In this document: one piece after another, positions 148 through 12,978 of the stretch
How positions within the stretch are numbered: position 1 is the first letter of the stretch
Layout of the letters: the number at the start of each line of letters is the position of its first letter
Assembly (NCBI GenBank): GCA_000442015.1
Contig: KE560636.1
Location: 59,181-79,180 of the forward strand
Length of the DNA stretch: 20,000 bases
Source: Rozella allomycis CSF55
Taxonomy: Eukaryota
Direction: 5' to 3'
Translations under genes and position numbers: made by a program
The notes under the pieces: generated by a model
The model's input: the letters and a program-made list of their open reading frames with translations, nothing else
Databases searched by the model: none
Told to the model about the DNA's origin: nothing

Positions 148-2341
148 ATGGCGACAGCGAGAAACAAAACCTTGAAGCCTCCACAAGAGTTAGATTTAGA
201 AATACCTGTTTGTTTGACAAAATTTCATGATATAGATGACACAAAGCCTGTATTTCCTGCATCTAAAGGAAAAGGAGTAGTTACGAATCAAAGGCAGCAG
301 GAAAATATAGATTCTAATATAAAAAGAAAAATGCCGATGGGCGCAAATTCACATAAACGCCCAAGGTTAGATATTCCACCACCTGTACCTGTGAAAAAAG
401 CTATGGTATCGAAACCAGCAACCAGAGTTGCAAAGCCAGCTCCAGTTTCCAGAAGTAGGGTTACGGTTCCAAAGACTGCTAGTGGGAGACCAATGTCTAC
501 TTTGGAATTGCAGGTAAAATATTAGTAATTGAGTGAGGAGAATCAAATGCTTGCGATGGGAGAAAGAACAAGTGCATTAGAATCACAAAATTTAATGGCT
601 CAAGAAACTATTCAAAGCATATCAGATAAGTTAAAAGAGAGTGAAAGTAGAGTGAATGAAATCAAGGCGACACTTGAGAGTAAAGTACAAATCAAGGAAA
701 TGGAGTCTGTTGAAAAGCAAAAAGAAATATATGAGCTGAAAGCCAAGATGCATGTAATCAAAATTTAAATAGTTAAATTTAGCAAAGAGAGTTAGAGATG
801 GATATGAAATTAAGATCTTTAAATGAGAGTCATGAAATGAACGCAAGAAGTTTAAAGGACGACATAAGCAGATTAAATGAAAAGGTTACTCATCTTAAAA
901 GAGATTGTGAATTCAAGGAAGAAAAAATATTTCAACTGAATGTAATTAGTCTTGTTAAAGTATAATAGAAAACAATAGAGTCACAATCACTGGCAATGTC
1001 TACAGCATCAGTAGATAATCAAACGTTAAAAGTCAGGCTTGAATCAATGGAAAATGCACATAAAGTTTTGATTAAAGAGAATGAAGAGTTAAAGAGGAAG
1101 CTTGAAGAAGCAAATGAAACAATTAAAGCGTTGGAAAATCAAATTCAAGTTGATGAAAAGATTAGAAGAAAGTTGCATAATGATATTTTGGAATTGAAGG
1201 GAAACATTAGAGTATTTTGTAGAGTTAGGCCAATCCTACCAGGGGAAAGTGAAAATTCAGAAGAAACGAAAATTCAATTTCCAGAAAGTAAAGAAGAAAA
1301 TCAGATTGAAATTTTGCAAACCACGGAACATTTTTCTGATAATTCAAAACAAATTGTTAAATCTTTACCTTTTCAATATGATCGAGTTTTTCAACCAAAT
1401 TCTTCTCAAAGCCAAGTGTTTAATGAAATATCGCAGCTTGTCCAATCTTCACTAGATGGTTACAGAGTTTGCGTTTTCGCTTACGGTCAAACTAACAGTG
1501 GAAAATCTTACACAATGGAAGGCCCCGCGATATTTGATGAAGACACAGCTGGAATGGTAAAATCAAACCATCATTATTTAATCTTAGATTCCAAGAGCTG
1601 TAAAACAAATTTATGAAACTGCCGAAGAGCTAAAAGAAAAGGGGTGGGAATATGAAATGGAAGCAACTTATGTTGAAATTTACAATGAAAACATTAGAGA
1701 CTTGCTAGGAAACGGCGAAGAAAAGAAACATGACATTAGACACTCAAATGGCAAAACTATAATCACAGACATCACAACAAGTAAATTTATTTCTGCATTA
1801 CGAAATCAGTTCAAGTGAAAGATGCTAAACAAGTTCTATCGTTAATCGAAAAGGCAAGAAAAAATAGAGCAGTTGGAGAAACTCAATGCAACGAACGTTC
1901 ATCAAGAAGTCACAGCGTGTTCATCTTAAAGCTTAATGGCAAAAATTCTATAACAAATGAAGAAACTGAAGGTGTTTTAAATTTGATTGATTTAGCTGGT
2001 TCAGAGAGGCTATCAGCTTCAGGGGCAACTGGTGATCGATTAAAGGAAACCCAAGCTATAAATAAATCTCTCAGCAGTCTCGGTGATGTCATTGCTGCTT
2101 TGGCTAACAAAGAGCAACATGTACCTTATCGAAATTCAAAATTAACTTATCTATTACAAAACTCTCTAGGCGGTAACTCAAAAACGTTAATGTTCGTCAA
2201 TATTTCACCATTAGCTCAAAACATTCAAGAAACAATTTGTAGTTTAAGATTCGCCACAAAAGTATATTTCATTAATTTTATTCATCATAGGTGAATGCTT
2301 GCCAAATAGGAACAGCAAGGAAAAATATTACACTAAAATAA
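148..2341 (+). CDS. KAR3: Kinesin-14 (Kar3/Ncd/KIFC1-like) C-terminal motor kinesin, about 673 aa spliced
   Basis: Basic N-terminal tail and coiled coil, then neck/motor motifs [60 protein letters not shown]. Introns 514-540 (or -537), 754-782, 942-968, 1557-1587, 1781-1809, 2262-2290 restore the frame (GM|IPRAV, FATK|VNACQIG). Confidence 0.95.
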
Positions 2342-2374: not shown

Positions 2375-4361
2375 ATGGATACTCTAGATTATTTAAAATT
2401 GTATTTCAATGAAATCAAAGAAGAAAAACTCTTAGTACAAGAAGAAAAGGTTAAAGAACAATTATTCGACACAGTCCTCAAAGAATACCCCAAACTCAAA
2501 AGAGTCGTAGAAAGTGTTCAAGTTCTAAAAGACCACATATCATTTCTTAAATCCAAAAGACTTGAAAATATATCCATCATCAAGGTAATACTATCTATTC
2601 GCTCAAACAGCCACTTTATGAAAGACTCTCAGAGGAAAGACAGTTACTTGAACAATTGCGAAAACAAAAAATGCAAATAGAAAAAGAAAAAGAAAAGACT
2701 GTAATCATGATAAAGTTGGAAATGTTGCTCAATGATATTATTGTATCAAGTGATATCAACAGAATTGTTACATGCATGTTACAGATAAAGAGAATACTAA
2801 AGCAGTACAATATAGAAACTCAATCATTTGACTTTGTAATTATTACATATTTGTATTATAGAAACTAAAGGAGGCTAAAGAAAAGACCACGAAACAATTG
2901 GTAGTCTTGTTTGTTAAAGACCCATCGTCAGCCATTAAATATGCCAGTCTTTGTGATTTAATGGATTGTCTATACGACAGATTTAGGGATTACAGGTTCA
3001 AACCGTTTATTAAAAAGTACCTGGATGTCAAAAAAATGGATTCCAATTCCCTTGAAATTCTTTTACAAAAAATTATAGAATTCTTAAACGAGAATCACTT
3101 TAAGGAAATCCAGGAGACTATTTCTAAAGTCAAAAATGCATCTTTTATTGTTTATTCAATTCTTCCTACTTTGGTATCCACACTAATTCAACGACACAAT
3201 TCAATATTTCTTCCTGGAATACCATCCAAATTTCATCAAGTACTTCAATTCTATTCTTTAAATGTAGAATTATAAGCTAATAAATCAATTTATTGATGAT
3301 TTGAAAAGAATTGCTGCGAATGAGGATGAATTAAAGTTGATTAACGAGTCAGCATGTTTAACCGATTTGCTATTAAAATTTAACACTGGAATATATTTTC
3401 AAATTTTATATAATGATATTGTAGCCGAATTAGAAGAAGTCTTTGGAATGCCATCAATCCCGCCACCTTTGGAAGCATACGATATAGAACAAGACGAAAG
3501 ATTTCATTTCTCTGCTTCAACAAGATATCTTTCATCTTTGAACAAAATTTGGAGCGATAAATATTTTATTGGCCGACAAAAGGATATGTTCTGGAAGCTA
3601 ACGATGCAAGTAAATAATTTGAACAATTACAATGTAGATGAACCTGAGGTATAAAATGTGGGTAGAATCACAATCCTTTCAAGTACCATAAATAATATTT
3701 TATTCTAGGATTTGAAAGGCAATGTAGCCCTGTACTTTGATGCTAAATCTGTTCCTCTACTTGCCCAGCATATATTCGAAAAAGATATATCCGGTCATTT
3801 ACCAATGGAACATAAAGAAGACTTTTCAGTTGCTTTTAAAAATACAATTATGCTTAACGTCAATGTCGAATCCAAAATATTAGAGTGTCTGTTATATTCT
3901 GCCAGCCAAAATATTGAGCAAGTGAAAACCTTGCCAAACATTTATAGAGGAAACAACAAAGCGGTAATGCATTAATTATTTTAAATTAGTAGATGCCAAC
4001 AGAAAGTTCAGATTTCTTGTTATCGTTTTTTGAGCCTTTCCTCACATTTGAAACTACTTACAAGAATGTCATTCAAATTAGCTCTTTTGCTTTAGACTAT
4101 TGCAGGAATTTGATTCCATTATATTGCGAAGCCATCGATAAAGTATTGAAATCCATAAAAATCGCAGAAGAAAGTATAAGGAAATTAAGGAAGGTTAAAA
4201 CGACATCTTTTCATTCAGATGAAGACAAAATTAAAATGCAAATAACTTTAGATATTGATCATTTAATTCAACTTATAACCGCCAAACTTGGTGATCAAGG
4301 AAGGTCTTTTGATTTTAATCAGTTAATTGAGTTGAAAAATTTGATTACCAACAATGTATAA
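2375..4361 (+). CDS. COG2: Conserved oligomeric Golgi complex subunit 2 (COG2), divergent, about 607 aa
   Basis: Spliced motifs IFLPGIPSKFHQ|NY, FNTGIYFQI, FWKLTMQ|MNLRY, IYRGNNKA|MPTESS and SDEDKIKMQITLDI resemble the COG2 C-terminal domain. Phase-0 introns 2585-2610, 2836-2861, 3240-3267, 3610-3637, 3683-3708, 3964-3992. Confidence 0.8.
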
Positions 4362-4590: not shown

Positions 4591-4613
4591 GCACAATTAA
4601 CTAAATTAACTTA

Positions 4614-5013
4614 ATGAATATTAGTATTTTCTCTATTACCATCTTGAATATCAGATATGTGCTTCACATGGATTATACTTTTTACTTCGCGCTCATACAC
4701 CCACGGAGATAATCAGTCAACCTCAACTTCGCGTACGCTTGGAGGTAGCATATTGGGCACGAAACTACTATTGGATAAGGATAAGAGAATATCAATAGGC
4801 CTTGAATCGATGACGATGAACTTTGCAAAAGAGGTTGGAGAAGAACTATATCGGGAGGTATATATGTTTAATTCGCAACTTGATTTTGACGAGGCTTCAG
4901 TGGTAAATGGCGAGGCCTATTACTACTCTCTTAGTTATTGGACTGAATTGTCGGATGATGAATTAAATGTTTGCTTGGATTCTCTTAGTCGAATCGAATC
5001 TCCAAGTTCATGA
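4614..5013 (+). CDS. Small orphan protein with possible signal peptide; candidate truncated paralog of the downstream HECT gene
   Basis: ORF 4657-5013. An ATG at 4614 plus a 31-nt GT-AG intron (4624-4654) extends it in frame to MNINMCFTWIILFTSRSYTHG. C-terminal SDDELNVCLDSLSRIE resembles SDEELYFAVRSLVQIE of the next gene. ATTAAA lies about 10 nt after the stop. Confidence 0.5.
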
Positions 5014-5060
5014 AACCATTTTAATTAAAAAAATTTATAGTGATATAGATTTGTTAAAAT

Positions 5061-5250
5061 TAGGTCATGAATTTGAGGTTCACTTGGAGCGCCTCATTGA
5101 ATATAACTTTGTCAAGTAATCGACTCTTCTTAATTATACCGTTGTCCAGTATATATCCGAATGTACCCTAATCTCCAAATGTAGACGAAAGATTACTATT
5201 TTCGTTCTTCACGTGTCCTTCTTAAAACGTTTAACCCACGTGAAGAATAA
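5061..5250 (+). repeat. Copy 2 of the duplicated upstream region, directly 5' of the HECT gene
   Basis: Collinear matches to 4453-4590 with insertions. Confidence 0.85.
5205..5247. promoter_or_regulatory. Perfect 11-bp inverted repeat with a CACGTG (E-box) in each arm
   Basis: TTCTTCACGTG (5205-5215), 21-nt spacer containing AAACGTTT, CACGTGAAGAA (5237-5247), ending 15 nt before ATG 5263. The regulatory role is inferred. Confidence 0.5.
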
Positions 5251-5262
5251 GCCTTTTCATTG

Positions 5263-7326
5263 ATGCAAGTTCTAATATTCCTAACTATTCTTTCTTCCTT
5301 TTATATTGTGTGTTGGAGTCTATTTAATGAGGATGATCAAGTCATGGTGAGGTTTCCATTACCAGATTCAAACAAATTTGCGTACCTTACAGTGCGAATT
5401 ACAAGAAGCCAGAATAGCTTGGGATCGAAGTCTAGAAATATTGCATTTTATCCGATAAATTACGATTTTCCACCATATGAAGAGATTGTGAGATCTTTTG
5501 ATATAAGACTTGTCCGTGATAGCATACAACTTCGCTATCGTGAGAGTGATGAATCTGAAGACACATATTTGACTGTTAATGGAAAATGCCAATTTGTAGC
5601 TCGCACTGATAGGTTTGGAAGAGGAGGTCATTTTGAACTGATTAGTAGCGAAAATGAAACCTTTTATAGACTGAAAGTCAAAAATAGAATGAAGTTTCTA
5701 AAGGCAAAGCCCAACGGGTCGTCAGTCAATGAATTAGTCCCTTCTTTGTCGTCATATAGAAGCGAACAACAGGACAAATACTTTTTTCAAATTGTTCCTA
5801 TAAAAACTAAGGTCATGGTAGAAAGGAGGTTTCCTATTCTAAGTAGGCAGCATCGCAACAGACCGTCAATGGGAGAGTCAATTGCAACACTTGCCTCAGA
5901 TAACAACGAAAGTTTGACTCCAGGTGCAACACAAACATTTATTGGTCAATCACCACCTGGGTCAAGCACAGTTGAACAAATTTTGGAAAATACTCAAGAT
6001 GAAGACGTAATAAATTCAGAACCAGGCTCGTTGTTGACTTCGATCCCAAGTTCAAGTTTAACTATGAGTGATTATAGTGATTATAATGACACGATTCAAG
6101 AGATGGAAGGGCACAATAATGAATGGTTGACGGATGATTCTTCTGATGAGGAACTATACTTCGCTGTCAGGTCCCTTGTTCAAATAGAACAACAAATAGT
6201 TTATATACTACCATTGGTTATTGATAGAACCGATATTATAGGGCCTTTGAAAAGAGAAATAACTGAAACACTCAAATTTCTGCAGAGTCACGCAGGGTAT
6301 AATTCACGGAAGTTGAATTTACGAGTCAAATTTAATGGGGAAATGGGACAAGATTTGGGTGGATTAACAAAGTAACTAGATTATACTAACCAAATTAAAG
6401 ATCTTATCTTACCCTTCTTGGCGAACATTTTCTATCACTTCCTAACTTTCTCATCAAATCGGAATCCGGGTTTTACTATCCAGCTGGGGGATACCGTGAT
6501 AAAGACATGCTGATTTTATTGGGTGTTTACATCGCGTTATCTCTTCATCATGAATTGCCTTTAGTTTTTAATATTTCTCCTTCTTTCATCAATCTGATGA
6601 CTGATGAAAATTACATGCCATCTTTATATGATGTATTAGTAGAAGAGCCTAGTACATATAAGTGGATAATTAATTTTTTGACGTAATAACGATTTACCCG
6701 CAATTTAGTCAAAATGTCGAGACTCCATTTAGTTTGGACATTGGAGAAAAAGAAGTTTTTGTTGATGAACAGTCAAAGCACACAGTGGCCAGGTAAGAAA
6801 GGTGTTAATGGTATATAACACAGGGAATACGTCAAATGGCTATTGAAAGACCAGATCGTCGATAGTGCCAAAATAGTTGCCAAAGGATTGAAGTTTATGA
6901 TACCTAGTGTTTTTACAAAATTTTCTGATCAATTGAATTCAATAAATATTGAAAGGGAAATTAACATTGAAGAACTGAAGAAAGTTACTATATATGATGA
7001 TTATACTGCTTTTGATTCCACAATAATATCATTTTGGCGAGTAATAAACTATTCTTTATTTTAAAAGTACATGGCAGAAGCCGAAAATAGCAAAAGACAA
7101 AAGGTTCTCAAGTTTATCACAGGAATGACACATATTCCAAAGGAGGGCATAATGATTAAGAAATGCTCAGACATTAATCGATTCCCAGCTGCACATACTT
7201 GGTAAAGATTTATTTTACAATCAAATTAGCAACAACGGTTTCGATTTGCCAGAATATTTGGACTACGAAACACTCAAATATAAATTAGATGAAGCGATCG
7301 AACAAAATACATTTGGATTAATGTAG
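5263..7326 (+). CDS. HECT-domain E3 ubiquitin ligase with N-terminal signal peptide-like segment and beta-trefoil-like domain, 640 aa spliced
   Basis: Introns 6372-6400, 6683-6708, 6793-6823, 7041-7067, 7202-7229 give a 1923-nt open frame. HECT motifs LRVKFNGEMGQDLGGLTK, IISFWR, KVLKFITG, RFPAAHTCNNGFDLPEY (catalytic Cys) and terminal FGLM* (-4 Phe). N-terminus is MQVLIFLTILSSFYIVCWS. Confidence 0.92.
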
Positions 7327-7338
7327 AATAAATTTATT
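7327..7338. terminator. Palindromic bidirectional poly(A) signal AATAAATTTATT between convergent genes
   Basis: AATAAA on + (7327-7332) directly after the HECT stop, and AATAAA on - (7333-7338) 14 nt past the eIF2B-alpha stop. Confidence 0.6.
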
Positions 7339-7352
7339 ATATGGTTCATGAT

Positions 7353-8481
7353 TTAATAGTAAAGTTTGATCAATTCGTCAGATACTCCAGAGGGTGTCAG
7401 AACCCCAATGTCTGTAAATAGTAAGGTTATGTACGCTGGAGGAGTGTAGTCCAACAATGGACTAGCTAAATCCTATTATTCAAACAAATGTAGCATTACT
7501 TCCTTTTTTATAATTGGATCATTCATCATTTGATTTGAAAATGTTCTATAGCTTAAACTGGTCGGAGTCCCGGTGGATAGCTCAGATTGGCTCAAAGGAA
7601 ACAAGCGAACAAACTTGAATGATTCCGCTACGGCGTAAAATGGTTTATTTGCCGCTTTGGCCATAACTGAGATTAGGTATGTCCCAATCTAATATTAATG
7701 TTCAATAGTAAAAGCTACCTGATTGATCAAACCCCCATTTTCCACAAAGCCTTCGGCACCAACTAATACCATGTCGATAGATTCCATATAATAGCCGACA
7801 GCCGAATCCAAAATGACTTTGACTGGGATTCCTGCCTTACGTAAAATTTCCGCGGATGATATTCTAAATATCACTGAAAGTCAAATTCAGTTACCCTGAA
7901 CATCCAGGCCTAGCTTCAGTGACATAAACGGTAAATCTTTTGTTGGCAGCAGCAGCCTTCAATAGTACCAAAGTAACAACTCTTGAATATGAGTGAATTA
8001 AAATGTTCTATCCTTAAAAATATTATCGCTTACAGTTCCATCGCGGATAAAATTCAATGCTGATTGAGCAATTTTTTGCCTACACATTGACGCCTTTTGC
8101 TCAAACTTGCTTCCTCTTTCATAAAGTCTCTTTTTGCACTTTTCAAATTCCTTTTCTTTTATTAAATATTATACATACAATAAAGTCTGTTGCTGTTCTG
8201 GTAACGAAACGGAGAAACAACTCGCACCCAGCTGAAACTGATACAGCGTCATTAAAATGTCTTTTCAAACTTTCCACTGATTTTTCTATTTCTTGAATAA
8301 ATTCTGCCATTGTATTCGCTATTCCAGATTTAAATATTTTTTACCTTTGGATGTTGGAATGAGCTCAGAGAGAGCTTTAATAGCAGCAACAGGCACAGAC
8401 AAGTCTTGATCTGTCTGTAATAAATTTTCAAAGTGCTTTATGACTTCTAGTCTGGTGAAAAAATATTTCTTTACCTGCCAT
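7353..8481 (-). CDS. GCN3: Translation initiation factor eIF2B subunit alpha
   Basis: Spliced motifs [90 protein letters not shown]. Introns 8447-8474, 8319-8344, 8151-8178, 8008-8033, 7864-7894, 7689-7718, 7473-7499. Confidence 0.96.
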
Positions 8482-8630: not shown

Positions 8631-11600
8631 ATGACGGATGAGGCAGGTATTTAAATATGGCAAAATTAAAAGATATCCATAAACAGGCAGCCAAGATTCT
8701 GGCGCATCCTTCAATGAAAAGTGCCAAAGATATCCCTATCGTGAGAAGACGGTCTCTGATTGATCCGACGAGGGCGCCATCCACAAGAAGAAAGCTTATA
8801 TCCCAGCCAGTAGACAAAAAAGACGAAACGAGGTTCCATCCATGGAAATGGTTTTCGTATTTGATTACATTTTGGGCCCCGCCATTTGCTCTGAGGCTGT
8901 GTGGCAAAAGAGATAAAGCAACTCAACAGGGTTTTAGAGAAAAGATTGCATTGTGTTTTATCATCTTAATCCTTTGTGCAGCTGTTGCCTTTCTTACATT
9001 CGGCTTGCAAAGAACGCTGTGCCCACCTAGTGAAAGTTCAGAAAGCCGGAAAAGAGTATCATCATTTGTTAATAACCCTGGGCCGTTTGTATCTGTGTTT
9101 GGAAATGTGTATGCAATGTCTGATATATCCAACATTGCTAATGATCCGAATTTTCCGTTTAGTCAGATTGGAACTGATTTAACATTGTATTTTCCACCTT
9201 CTCCGGATATTTGTAATCAATCGCCTACTGTTGCTGGATCTTTTAAGTTTCCGTGTTCTGGCAGTCAATGTATGGATAGAAATTTGTTACAAGGATTAAA
9301 AACAAACGCCCTATTCTTTTTATGGGCTGATATTTCTAAAAATTATATAGTNTCCTACTGTTGCTGGGTCTTTTAAGTTTCCGTGTTCTGGCAGTCAATG
9401 TATGGATAGAAATTTGTTGCAAGGATTAAAGACAAACGCCCTATTCTTTTTATGGGCTGATATTTCTAAAAATTATATAGTGTACAATGGAGAAGTGATG
9501 GACATGTCATCATATGTTAGTCAAGGGAATCAGTTCTTGGGGCCTGTTGTTAATGATTTAATTTTGAAGAATTTAGGGAAAGATGTTACTGTTGCCTTGA
9601 AAAGGTTGGATCAGTCTGGAAGAACCGCAAAGTGCTTGGTGCAAACCTTTAAAGTGGGGAATGTTGATAAAGAGACTAGAGGTTGTTTTGCAGCACAATT
9701 AATAATGATGATATCTTTAGTTATTATTGTATGTGTGATAATTGTGAGGTTTCTCATGGCTGTTACATTTGATTGGTTTATGAGTAGCCAGTTGGATAAG
9801 TTTTCTAGAGACAAAGTAGCCAAACAAAATGCACAAAGAATGTCAAGGTATACATTGCCTAAAGCCAATAGAATGTCTGTTGTTAGTAATAAAACAAATA
9901 GCAAATATTTTCCACAAATTGATTTTGACTTTGACGATGATCCGTTTGTAGTTTTGCTGGTTACTTGTTATTCTGAAGGCGAAGAATCAATAAGGTCGAC
10001 CATTGAATCTTTGGCGGAGACAGACTATCAAGACAAGCGTAAATTGTTATTTATTATTGCTGATGGGTTGATTACAGGATCAGGGAATCCAAAGAGCACT
10101 CCTGACACCATTTTAGATATGATTGACATTGATGATGCATTTCCTGAACCGATTCCAATGTCATATTCAGCTGTTGCTGATGGATCTAAACAACATAACA
10201 TGGCAAAAGTTTATATTGGAGAATTCAAGTCACGTGGGCATGTAGTGCCAGTCATTGTTGTTGTAAAGTGTGGTACCCCTGAAGAATCCAAATTACCAAA
10301 ACCAGGAAATAGAGGGAAAAGAGATTCTCAGTTAATTTTAATGAACTTTTTTCAAAAAGTTTTGTTTGATGATAGAATGTGCCCACTTGAATATGAAATG
10401 TTTACAAAGTTGCATTACTTGATGGGTGTGACTCCTGATAGATTTGAAATTGTTTTAATGGTTGACGCTGACACTAGAGTGTTGCCAGATTCGTTAGGGA
10501 AAATGGTCTGTGCTATGAGAAGGGATAACATGGTTATGGGATTATGCGGCGAAACAAGGTAAACTTATTGTACATTACATTATAGAATTCATAACAAGAG
10601 AACTTCATGGGTTACAAGTATTCAAGTATTTGAGTATTACATTTCTCATCATTTGGGAAAAGCATTCGAAAGTGTTTTTGGTGGTGTCACTTGTCTCCCT
10701 GGTTGTTTCTGCATGTAAAATACAAAACCATGAAATTAAAAGGTATCGAATCAAAGCATTCAAGAATGGTTCCTGGGTTCCCATTATTTCAAACCCTGAA
10801 ATCATTGAAGAATATTCTCAAAACGTTGTTCAAACCTTACATGAAAAGAATTTGCTACTTTTAGGTGAAGATAGATTCCTCACTACCTTAATGCTTAAAA
10901 CTTTCCCTCACAGAAAACTTATTTTTGTACCAAACGCTGTTTGTAAAACGTAATTGCATTATCCTTTATGTGACCAGGGTCGTCCCTGATGAATTTAAAG
11001 TTTTACTTTCTCAACGAAGAAGATGGATTAATTCAACCATTCATAATTTATTAGAGTTAGTCAGAGTTAGGGAATTGTGCGGTATTTTTTGTTTTTCAAT
11101 GCAGTTTGTTGTTTTCCTTGAACTCATCGGGACTGTCGTTCTTCCAGCCGCTATTATCTTCACCTTTGTGCTTCTTTATACTACTTTCACTACCCCAAAT
11201 CCTCAAATTATTCCATTAGCTCTACTCGGTGCTGTGCTAGGTTTACCAGCTATCTTAATCTTAATGACAACTAGAAAAGTTGTTTACATATCTTGGATGC
11301 TAACATACCTTTTAGCTCTTCCCATTTGGAACTTTGTTTTACCCGTATATGCGTATTGGCATTTCGATGATGTTAGCTGGGGTCAAACAAGAAAAGTTGA
11401 CGGTGAGGGGAAAGACGACCACGGGAAAAAAGAAGGGAAATTCAATTCAAACTCCATTCCGCTAAAACGGTGGAATGAATGGAGAAAGTATAATGATGAG
11501 CAGGGAAATTTTCATATTCAAGTGGATAAACCAACAAAGGAATTAATGAAAGAAAAGAAAGAAAAGGAGAAAAGAAAAGCTGAAATCATTTTCTTGGAGA

Positions 11601-11647
11601 AACCGGATTCTTTATCTGAACAGCGGAATGAGGAAGAAAATCAATAA
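8631..11647 (+). CDS. CHS3: Chitin synthase, division 2 (class IV / Chs3-like), no myosin motor domain
   Basis: Motifs FREKIALC, cytochrome b5-like region, [47 protein letters not shown]. Introns 10559-10585, 10715-10742, 10950-10977 and probably 8647-8672 (start 8631; otherwise ATG 8657). The apparent frameshift at N9352 comes from a 129-nt duplicated overlap. Confidence 0.95.
9223..9481 (+). other. Near-identical duplication flanking single N 9352 (probable allelic contig overlap)
   Basis: 9223-9351 vs 9353-9481, with four synonymous differences (TCG/TCT, GGA/GGG, TTA/TTG, AAA/AAG). Confidence 0.85.
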
Positions 11648-11680: not shown

Positions 11681-12090
11681 AAATTTAAATTCATATCCGA
11701 CTGTCGGACTTCGATAGGCGATAAGCAGGCTATTGAACAACTCCTTGGAAGTTGGATCTTTGAAAATTGAAACTGCACCAATTCCATTAAAAGGTTCATT
11801 TGTTACTTTAAATACTTTATAATGAGAATTTTTAGGCATTTGTTTCTTAAATTACACACGATTCTATTTTTGAGAACAAATGTTATAAATAAANAATAAA
11901 ATTTAAATTTATATCCGACTGTCGGACTTTGATAGCGATAAGCACTCCTTGGATATTTGAAAATTGCAACTGTACCAATTCAATTAAAAGGTTCATTTGT
12001 TACCTTAAATACTTTATAATGATAATTTTTAGGCCTTTGATTCTTAAATTACACACGATTCTATTTTTGAGAACAAATGTTATAAATAAA
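11681..12090 (+). other. Diverged duplication flanking single N 11894 (probable allelic overlap, intergenic)
   Basis: 11681-11893 vs 11899-12090, with about 10 substitutions and 3 indels counted by eye. Confidence 0.75.
11914..11926. promoter_or_regulatory. Palindrome TCCGAC-T-GTCGGA (also at 11696-11708)
   Basis: GC-rich 13-nt palindrome in AT-rich intergenic DNA, identical in both otherwise diverged copies, about 200 nt upstream of ATG 12130. Confidence 0.45.
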
Positions 12091-12129
12091 CGATGGTACA
12101 AATACGAGGAACATGCCCCGTTTCGTTTC

Positions 12130-12978
12130 ATGTACAAAACAACCGCCTTGTCTATTTTACTTGCCACCATTGTATCTGCCGGCGACTACTCTAGCAGCGA
12201 GACCCAAGTAGGAACAATAACAACATACTATGGTCCCAAATATGGGCATTTGCCAGACAGCGGCGGTGACCAAGTTGCATGTCCTGGAATTAAACCCGAC
12301 TGGCACAATGATCCGTACATGGCTGCCATTCCAGTAAGCAAATATGAAAACGGCAAGCATTGCAACAAAAAGATGAGAATTTGCAACGCCAACAATCGCT
12401 CCAAATGTGTCACGGTAAGAATAGTCGACTCGTGCGCTGGCGATGCTTGCAAAGAATTTGACTTGTCGTCTACTGCGGCTGAAGAACTCGGAGGTGATAA
12501 TATCAAAGTTGTGTATGGCCCAGCTGATGGAAGCCTTAGTGAAGAAACTGAGACTGTTTCAAAGGTACCAAAACACAATGTTTCTGCCAGTGAAACTAAG
12601 GTTTCTGCTGAAACTGTAACACCAACCGCATCTGCAACAACTACGACACCATGTCCTGAAGAAACAAGGTCAACGCAAGCATCAACTGAAGCATCAACAA
12701 CGCCATGTCCAGATGAACATGTTAGCGAAACATCAACAACACCATGCCCGGAGGAGACAACGGCAACAGAAGAGGGAAAATCTACCTCAACAACCACCCC
12801 ATGCCCAGAAGAAGATTCTTATCAAAATGATAAAGAAACTGAAAAGGGAGAAGAAAAGGAAAAGAGTACATCTGAAGTAATTGGGGACCAATTCGGAGGC
12901 TATGTAAGTGCTTCAAGCACCATTGGTTACTCAATTGTAGCGCTCTTGTCGATGTTTGTATTAAATGTTTATCAATAA
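12130..12978 (+). CDS. Secreted, probably GPI-anchored DPBB (RlpA-like/expansin-like/loosenin-type) protein with Thr/Glu-rich stalk, 282 aa, no intron needed
   Basis: Signal peptide MYKTTALSILLATIVSA. DPBB-type motifs GTITTYY, AC, YMAAIP, HCNKKMRI, CVTVRIVDSC, FDLSSTA. Four TTPCP(E/D)E repeats and hydrophobic C-tail SASSTIGYSIVALLSMFVLNVYQ. Confidence 0.85.
   Translation: MYKTTALSILLATIVSAGDYSSSETQVGTITTYYGPKYGHLPDSGGDQVACPGIKPDWHNDPYMAAIPVSKYENGKHCNKKMRICNANNRSKCVTVRIVDSCAGDACKEFDLSSTAAEELGGDNIKVVYGPADGSLSEETETVSKVPKHNVSASETKVSAETVTPTASATTTTPCPEETRSTQASTEASTTPCPDEHVSETSTTPCPEETTATEEGKSTSTTTPCPEEDSYQNDKETEKGEEKEKSTSEVIGDQFGGYVSASSTIGYSIVALLSMFVLNVYQ
12643..12813 (+). repeat. Four coding repeats TTPCP(E/D)E
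   Basis: Units start at about 12643, 12697, 12736 and 12793, with synonymous divergence. Confidence 0.9.

Follow-up and report, generated by a model that had tools for sequence, protein, structure and literature searches.

Introduction

The N-terminal modules of HECT ubiquitin ligases vary and determine which substrate is chosen or where in the cell the ligase is located, and it is from these modules that the ligases are classified and their substrates guessed. Glycans are recognized by the sugar-binding F-box proteins of SCF ligases, and ricin-type trefoil lectin domains are mostly secreted carbohydrate-binding modules. The bacterial proteins SopA and NleL, which are only distantly HECT-like, are secreted ligases delivered by type III secretion. 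The gene described here encodes a HECT ligase of Rozella allomycis CSF55 and lies in a 20,000-nucleotide (nt) stretch of contig KE560636.1 (positions 59,181 to 79,180, hereafter the window). Rozella is a wall-less protoplast that grows inside Allomyces. An initial annotation, made from the letters of the window alone, had read the gene as a signal peptide, a three-fold β-trefoil-like module of the fascin or lectin kind at 5335-5805, an S/T/D-rich linker, and a HECT domain. Here we report that the domain at 5335-5805 probably folds as a β-trefoil, that it is fused to a HECT ligase, and that the signal peptide is probably an artefact of reading into an intron.

The initial annotation could assign this architecture to no standard HECT subfamily, and two surveys agree with it as far as their main texts go. 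That of a eukaryote-wide HECT survey (PMC3673628) contains no fascin, trefoil, ricin, lectin, signal peptide, or transmembrane, and that of a fungal HECT survey (PMC5913265) contains no trefoil or fascin; neither names a trefoil, fascin, ricin, or lectin partner for a HECT domain. A full-text literature search that combined HECT with trefoil-type terms returned no such architecture in titles or in the opening lines of abstracts. A trefoil-HECT architecture is undescribed in this literature, and it may exist unnoticed in InterPro or the AlphaFold DB.

Results

A Divergent HECT Ligase Fused to an N-Terminal Domain

The window has many short open reading frames (ORFs) broken at GT...AG, the pattern of a small-intron eukaryote. 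In a word-indexed protein search, the ORF translation was 100% identical to the 718-residue EPZ36204.1, "HECT domain-containing protein" (UniProt A0A075B0W4); public databases already list both the gene and its HECT domain. Pfam places PF00632 on residues 445-690 of this protein with an expectation value (E) of 1.4e-34, and the separate exon translations match HECT too. Among solved structures, 60 HECT chains match at E ≤ 1e-5, the best being yeast Rsp5 (5hpl, E 7.6e-22, residues 401-686), and in this alignment Cys660 pairs with the active-site Cys of Rsp5 (query 'aahtC', Rsp5 'shtC'). Both marks of HECT membership, the domain and the C-lobe catalytic cysteine, are present, and the initial annotation was right to call the product a HECT ligase. 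At E ≤ 1e-5 the HECT domain matches 4 proteins among 2289 candidates, including EPZ36204.1 itself; the other three are two ant HERC4 proteins (28-29% identity) and one unnamed protein. The alignments point to a ligase that is divergent but catalytically intact. Six HECT genes are reported for Rozella, one of which, classed as "Other", is an extremely divergent HUL4-related sequence (Marin 2018, PMC5913265); this sequence could be EPZ36204.1.

Pfam scans found HECT alone, with nothing N-terminal to it (no C2, WW, RLD, AZUL, armadillo, or other domain), and the precomputed Pfam list of the deposited protein holds PF00632 only. The linker of about 115 residues is 54% S/T/D/E/N/Q and 25% hydrophobic, as its description as S/T/D-rich had it, and is without a Pfam or PDB match; it is probably disordered. 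Because a single stop-free ORF (5263-6375) runs through the domain and the linker into the first HECT motif (GGLTK, about 6358-6372), their fusion does not depend on the gene model. The joining of domain and ligase is real, a fact of the DNA.

An Orphan Domain

In the 5263-6375 frame, 5335-5805 encodes 157 residues that hold every hydrophobic-strand string quoted in support of a trefoil (VMVRF, YLTV, SFDIR, IQLRY, YLTVNG, FVA, GHFELI, FYRLK, KFLKA, LV, and YFFQIV). The arrangement of these strings as a three-fold pseudo-repeat did not hold at the level of sequence. The domain was cut at the three proposed units, which were compared pairwise by local BLOSUM62 alignment and judged against 2000 residue shuffles. 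The pairwise scores were 31, 18, and 19 (sum 68), and the shuffles reached the sum in 12.95% of cases (p 0.13) and the maximum in 6.2% (p 0.06), which is not above chance; a MAFFT alignment of the three units also differs in register from the one proposed. Low internal sequence similarity is usual in genuine trefoils, and many fail a repeat test.

Searches for a known family were uniformly negative. Pfam at E ≤ 10 gave no trefoil family for the domain or its three units; four of the five pieces scanned had no match at all, and the third unit had two chance matches to unrelated families. The PDB sequence search returned no chain for the domain at E ≤ 10, and the sole PDB match to a profile of the three internal units was an ABC permease (E 0.69). 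Among 1.84 billion representatives, phmmer found EPZ36204.1 itself and one protein made of 64-residue repeats, five copies of which each match at 26-28% over about 40 residues; we judged the latter spurious. The word-indexed search among longer proteins yielded one match in 200 candidates, again EPZ36204.1, and a search of proteins of near length yielded none among 58 candidates at E ≤ 10. Metagenome contigs gave 187 pattern matches, none of which was confirmed by tblastn.

Prokaryotes were covered by comparing the domain with 401 + 3 genomes. A match at a per-genome E ≤ 1 was seen in 34 of the 401, the best at 19.6 bits. The weak matches (12-20 bits) recur, with query residues 57-147 on ORFs of 348-350 residues in several genomes and residues 19-59 on ORFs of roughly 700 residues in about a dozen. 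Six of the targets were translated; inspection by eye suggested release factor 2 for three and NAD-dependent DNA ligase for the other three. We rejected them as relatives: the matches recur because their targets are conserved, not through homology. No trefoil protein is among the weak matches from the 404 genomes. By sequence comparison, the 157-residue domain is an orphan, lineage-specific and without a detectable relative.

A Predicted β-Trefoil Fold

The evidence for the fold comes from the ESM Atlas model of EPZ36204.1, the sequence of which is identical letter for letter. Residues 72-236 of this model align with all 10 listed structural clusters at a template modeling (TM) score, by query, of 0.68-0.73 over 131-147 residues, and 9 of the 10 contain PF14200 (RicinB_lectin_2), PF00340 (IL1), or PF06229 (FRG1). 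RicinB_lectin_2 is found in seven listed clusters, in 23-100% of their members; the others are an IL-18 cluster (TM 0.69), an FRG1 cluster (TM 0.68; 1870 members, mostly Ascomycota), and one without a family. The aligned part itself is a trefoil family in 4 of the 10 listed rows, one of which reaches the bar for naming. Scores of this size to ten clusters imply that the Atlas model contains a well-formed trefoil. Feature neighbors lead to the same fold. In the first search 18 of 30 neighbors carry a Pfam family, in every case RicinB_lectin_2, CDtoxinA, Inhibitor_I66, AbfB, Fascin, or FRG1, and the corresponding figure in the second search is 17 of 30, with FGF added to these families; we take all of these to belong to the Pfam trefoil clan CL0066. 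The largest named set is RicinB_lectin_2 (11 of 30 in the first search and 10 of 30 in the second). The first feature match has a value of 0.95, which about 1 in 100 shuffled proteins attains.

A rival account is that the domain is no trefoil but some other β-rich, or a partly disordered, fast-evolving N-terminal extension, and that the language model pushed an orphan β-rich sequence onto a common all-β fold. Several results lean this way and so weigh against the trefoil. All of the fold evidence has one source, the ESM language model, such that the feature and structure searches count once, and the Atlas model is of modest confidence over the whole protein (predicted local distance difference test, pLDDT, 0.59; predicted TM, pTM, 0.48). 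The recognition value is 1933, whereas 91 in 100 known-family proteins reach 2300; the 109-153 shared features fall short of the 170 that true family members typically have; and ten same-clan matches are also obtained for a third of shuffled proteins. The fold has no backing from any method other than ESM: AlphaFold2 was twice unusable as a single-sequence predictor (pLDDT 36.1 and 34.6), and Foldseek with the first of these models found only sliding clamps and carboxylases at TM ≤ 0.20. The absence of a Pfam, PDB, or profile signal and of a significant internal repeat counts on the same side, the repeat being weak evidence, and a domain with no relatives among the 1.84 billion representatives can therefore offer no evidence from covariation.

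What opposes this account is the quality of the match, which extends over 131-147 of 165 residues in ten different model clusters, together with a first feature match seldom equaled by shuffled proteins. The length of 157 residues and the strands of the weak AlphaFold2 models also fit three four-strand units. These very low-confidence models (pLDDT about 35) have strands at nine of the positions proposed in the initial annotation (by DSSP in the pLDDT 34.6 model, 2-8, 15-21, 54-60, 63-69, 77-82, 99-105, 108-115, 118-123, and 133-135), and the low similarity among the units is, as noted, what trefoils usually show. The suggested check by AlphaFold and Foldseek was uninformative with AlphaFold2; the Atlas model is trefoil-like. 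The trefoil proposal itself stands on the Atlas structure and the feature neighbors and falls short on a sequence-level family match or repeat, so that the fold is seen in the predicted model only. We consider it likely that the 5335-5805 domain folds as a β-trefoil; an unrelated β-rich or partly disordered extension is an improbable alternative.

Lectin-like, Fascin-like, or Other

Within the trefoil reading, the domain could be a ricin-type lectin, in which case the ligase would recognize glycans and not protein or actin. The prominence of RicinB_lectin_2 in the listed structural rows (7 of 10) and among the feature neighbors of both searches favors this idea, and hhalign to a ricin-type profile puts TFYRLKVKNRMKFLKAK on the ricin-lobe start 'yYqlvnrhSGKalDV', without significance (P 0.29). 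The R-type lectins, however, are defined by QxW motifs, and the domain has no Trp among its 157 residues and therefore no QxW; nor does it match PF00652 or PF14200 at E ≤ 10. The IL-18 and FRG1 models also fit almost as well (TM 0.69 and 0.68). With the ricin-type profile, for which 29 RicinB_lectin_2 domains of Streptomyces were used, the query obtained -1.1 bits, a value that 4.45% of 2000 shuffles equaled (p about 0.045-0.05). We used 13 segments of the window as controls, and the gene's own linker scored better (p 0.025) and a piece of adaptin about equally (p 0.06). Because unrelated control segments score like the query, the profile cannot separate them, and the test carries no weight. 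A ricin-type lectin on this ligase is, in our judgment, quite unlikely.

The domain was also compared with trefoils of the fascin kind. Its recurring aromatic-Leu strand with a later F-[DEQ]-[IL] (YLTV...FDI, YLTV...FEL, and FLKA...FQI) resembles the Fascin and FRG1 families, both of which occur among the feature neighbors at 0.93. Neither PF06268 nor PF06229 matches at E ≤ 10, and Fascin has a match in 1 of the 401 prokaryote genomes. These grounds do not separate a fascin-like from a lectin-like trefoil. The binding of host actin or glycans, which the initial annotation had suggested, is speculation.

Exon-Intron Structure and the Supposed Signal Peptide

The gene model was obtained by exact mapping of EPZ36204.1 onto the window DNA (Table 1) and has introns of 43, 203, 29, 26, 31, 27, 28, and 42 nt. 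The five introns within the HECT domain (6372-7229) are 26-31 nt each with GTAA donors in all, and they are confirmed because the HECT alignment runs on continuously across the exons. The 43-nt intron before exon 2 has an atypical donor, GTTCAT. In a study of fungal introns, median lengths range from 29 to 197 bp and gene density is highest in R. allomycis (PMC8042348), which tells against the deposited model with its 203-nt intron. One RNA run with the same species label had no contigs (0) on 4600-7500.

The sequence taken for a signal peptide, MQVLIFLTILSSFYIVCWS, consists of ATG 5263 and the 18 codons that follow and is present only if 5263-5319 is coding. In the deposited model this segment falls within the 203-nt intron. 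It is 49% T and 65% pyrimidine. A branch-like CTAAC (5281-5285) and a terminal AG are also present, the pattern expected where an intron ends. We scored codon usage as a log-likelihood per codon, trained on the Pfam-supported exons of the window; known coding windows of 19 codons have a mean of 0.40 and a standard deviation of 0.25. Exon 1 (4864-5004 scored) has +0.47, against coding windows with a mean of 0.40 and a standard deviation of 0.21, and exon 2 (5051-5113 scored) has +0.19, with the other two frames negative in each case; the 5335-5805 domain has +0.23, and the linker is shown to be coding by its +0.42. The segment 5263-5319 has -0.12 in frame, about 2 standard deviations under the coding windows, and scores higher in another frame, and 5116-5262 is negative in all three.

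These values bear on a different reading of the 5' end, in which translation begins at ATG 5263, MQVLIFLTILSSFYIVCWS serves as signal peptide or membrane anchor, and 4864-5115 belongs to another gene, one of 71 codons with its stop at TAA 5117-5119. The outcome would be a secreted trefoil-HECT effector that ubiquitinates host proteins or, alternatively, an anchored ligase. The sequence offers this reading some support: ATG 5263 and the domain share a reading frame, 17 of the 18 codons after it are uncharged and mostly hydrophobic, and the hydrophobic run ends six residues before the first predicted strand. Exon 2, if unspliced, meets a stop at once. A start at ATG 4864 requires an intron of 203 nt, about seven times the length of the five homology-supported HECT introns, and it is taken from a deposited model that is probably unreliable at its 3' end (see below), which makes the 5' model uncertain too; both points weigh against the gene start that we prefer. 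The non-coding score argues the other way, as do the T content and the CTAAC, which fit an intron 3' end, and T-rich DNA yields runs of F, L, I, and S regardless of function. Exon 1 has a clearly coding score, and the stand-alone 71-residue product of 4864-5115 has no match in Pfam or the PDB. Ubiquitin transfer, moreover, depends on cytosolic E1 and E2 enzymes. The signal peptide of the initial annotation is thus probably an intron read-through artefact, and the gene probably begins farther upstream, at ATG 4864, with two short exons, a 5' model that is itself inferred. A genuine signal peptide or anchor at 5263-5319 is unlikely, and so is translation from ATG 5263.

Upstream of exon 1, the stretch of about 500 nt from the COG2 end (about 4361) to ATG 4864 appears non-coding and is long compared with the other gaps in the window. 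This interval includes 4657-4863, the upstream part of a 118-codon ORF (4657-5013). Its codon score is -0.004 per codon, and because this is near zero we regard 4657-4863 as probably 5' untranslated region or promoter.

The 3' End of the Deposited Model

Read without further splicing, the HECT gene ends in ...NTFGLM* with its stop at 7324-7326 and a Phe at position -4, which is typical of HECT domains. The last 28 residues of EPZ36204.1 (ILINSS...AGGV) depend instead on a 42-nt intron and an exon lying opposite the neighboring eIF2B-family gene, antisense to its last coding exon. The deposited 3' end is probably a mis-annotation and the extra exon spurious.

Neighboring Genes

The genes around the HECT gene are ordinary housekeeping genes (Table 1). 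No other kilobase of the window is as GC-rich (0.416, compared with about 0.34) as the one that contains the ORF with a DPBB_1 (expansin/RlpA-like) match. The window contains four isolated N bases (9352, 11894, 13144, and 18310), each within or at the edge of a coding ORF, and one of them produces an X in the chitin synthase translation.

Table 1. Positions of the HECT gene, its parts, and its neighbors in the window
Feature	Position	Strand	Remarks
Kinesin	969-2294		Neighbor gene
COG2	about 2375-4361		Neighbor gene
Exon 1 (MFNSQ...RIESP)	4864-5005	+	Deposited model; probable true gene start
Exon 2 (NLLKLGHEFEVHLERLIEYNFV)	5049-5115	+	Deposited model; unspliced reading meets TAA 5117-5119
203-nt intron, GTAATC...AG	5116-5318	+	CTAAC at 5281-5285; T-rich tract before acceptor
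Orphan domain, 157 residues	5335-5805	+	EPZ36204.1 residues 76-232
S/T/D/E/N/Q-rich linker	5806-6150	+	ORF residues 182-295
HECT catalytic domain	6151-7326	+	Exon pieces to 6371, 6401-6682, 6709-6792, 6824-7040, 7068-7201, and 7230 to stop 7324-7326
Catalytic Cys codon (Cys660)	7200-7201 and 7230	+	Split tg|c by 28-nt intron 7202-7229
3' intron and last exon	7323-7364 (intron); exon to 7446	+	Deposited model
eIF2B-family gene	7353 to about 8480	-	Last coding exon 7353-7472
Chitin synthase with cytochrome b5 domain	8657-11647		Neighbor gene
DPBB-domain ORF	11893-12978		Weak DPBB_1 match, E 6.7e-5, below Pfam cut-off
CBF/Mak21, beta-adaptin, and porin			Further genes in the window

Discussion

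Considered jointly, the observations are best explained, we are inclined to think, by a lineage-specific trefoil that is the targeting module of a divergent HECT ligase, translated from ATG 4864 and lacking a signal peptide. In such a protein, three four-stranded units around a pseudo-threefold axis would form the N-terminal part of the ligase, and they would be joined to the HECT domain by a flexible linker, acidic and rich in Ser and Thr, that is about 115 residues long. The trefoil would be the module that selects substrate or location, by binding a protein, glycan, lipid, or filament partner that is thereby brought near the thioester at Cys660. This targeting role is the most likely one by analogy with the N-terminal modules of other HECT ligases. 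Having no signal peptide and starting at ATG 4864, the ligase would be intracellular in the parasite.

A more far-reaching scheme can be drawn from the same DNA. A transcript could start within the intron, with translation from ATG 5263 and secretion of the product into the Allomyces cytoplasm, where the trefoil would have a host glycan, actin, or protein as its partner and host targets would be ubiquitinated by the HECT domain. If true, one eukaryote would be secreting a HECT effector into another, and the effector's targeting domain would lack detectable relatives; we regard the scheme as very unlikely.

The scope of this work is narrow, namely one gene in one species with a fold that is predicted only. 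Should the fold be confirmed, it would be a starting point for asking what is recognized by this ligase, a fast-evolving and species-restricted enzyme in an intracellular parasite. Two pitfalls of annotation also come to light: the T-rich end of an intron can pass for a signal peptide when raw ORFs are read, and the deposited model of this HECT gene is probably wrong at its 3' end.

With respect to known systems, a likeness to SopA and NleL would exist only if the protein were secreted, as a HECT-type ligase entering a host cell with its own targeting domain; in contrast to those proteins, the Rozella HECT domain is canonical eukaryotic, and secretion is unsupported by the codon score. The ricin-type lectins (PF14200 and PF00652) are similar in domain length and are the best structural neighbors of the Atlas model (TM 0.68-0.73), whereas the Rozella domain has no QxW motif and no Pfam or profile signal and sits on a ligase. 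Fascin and FRG1 trefoils (PF06268 and PF06229) are close by feature value and, for FRG1, by model, and differ in that the Rozella domain is without a Pfam match. Compared with Rsp5/NEDD4 and the insect HERC4 proteins, the Rozella protein has no Pfam domain N-terminal of HECT, and its HECT domain is divergent, but it would share with these HECT E3 ligases the same overall plan, in which a linker connects a variable module at the N terminus with a HECT domain, bearing the catalytic Cys, at the C terminus.

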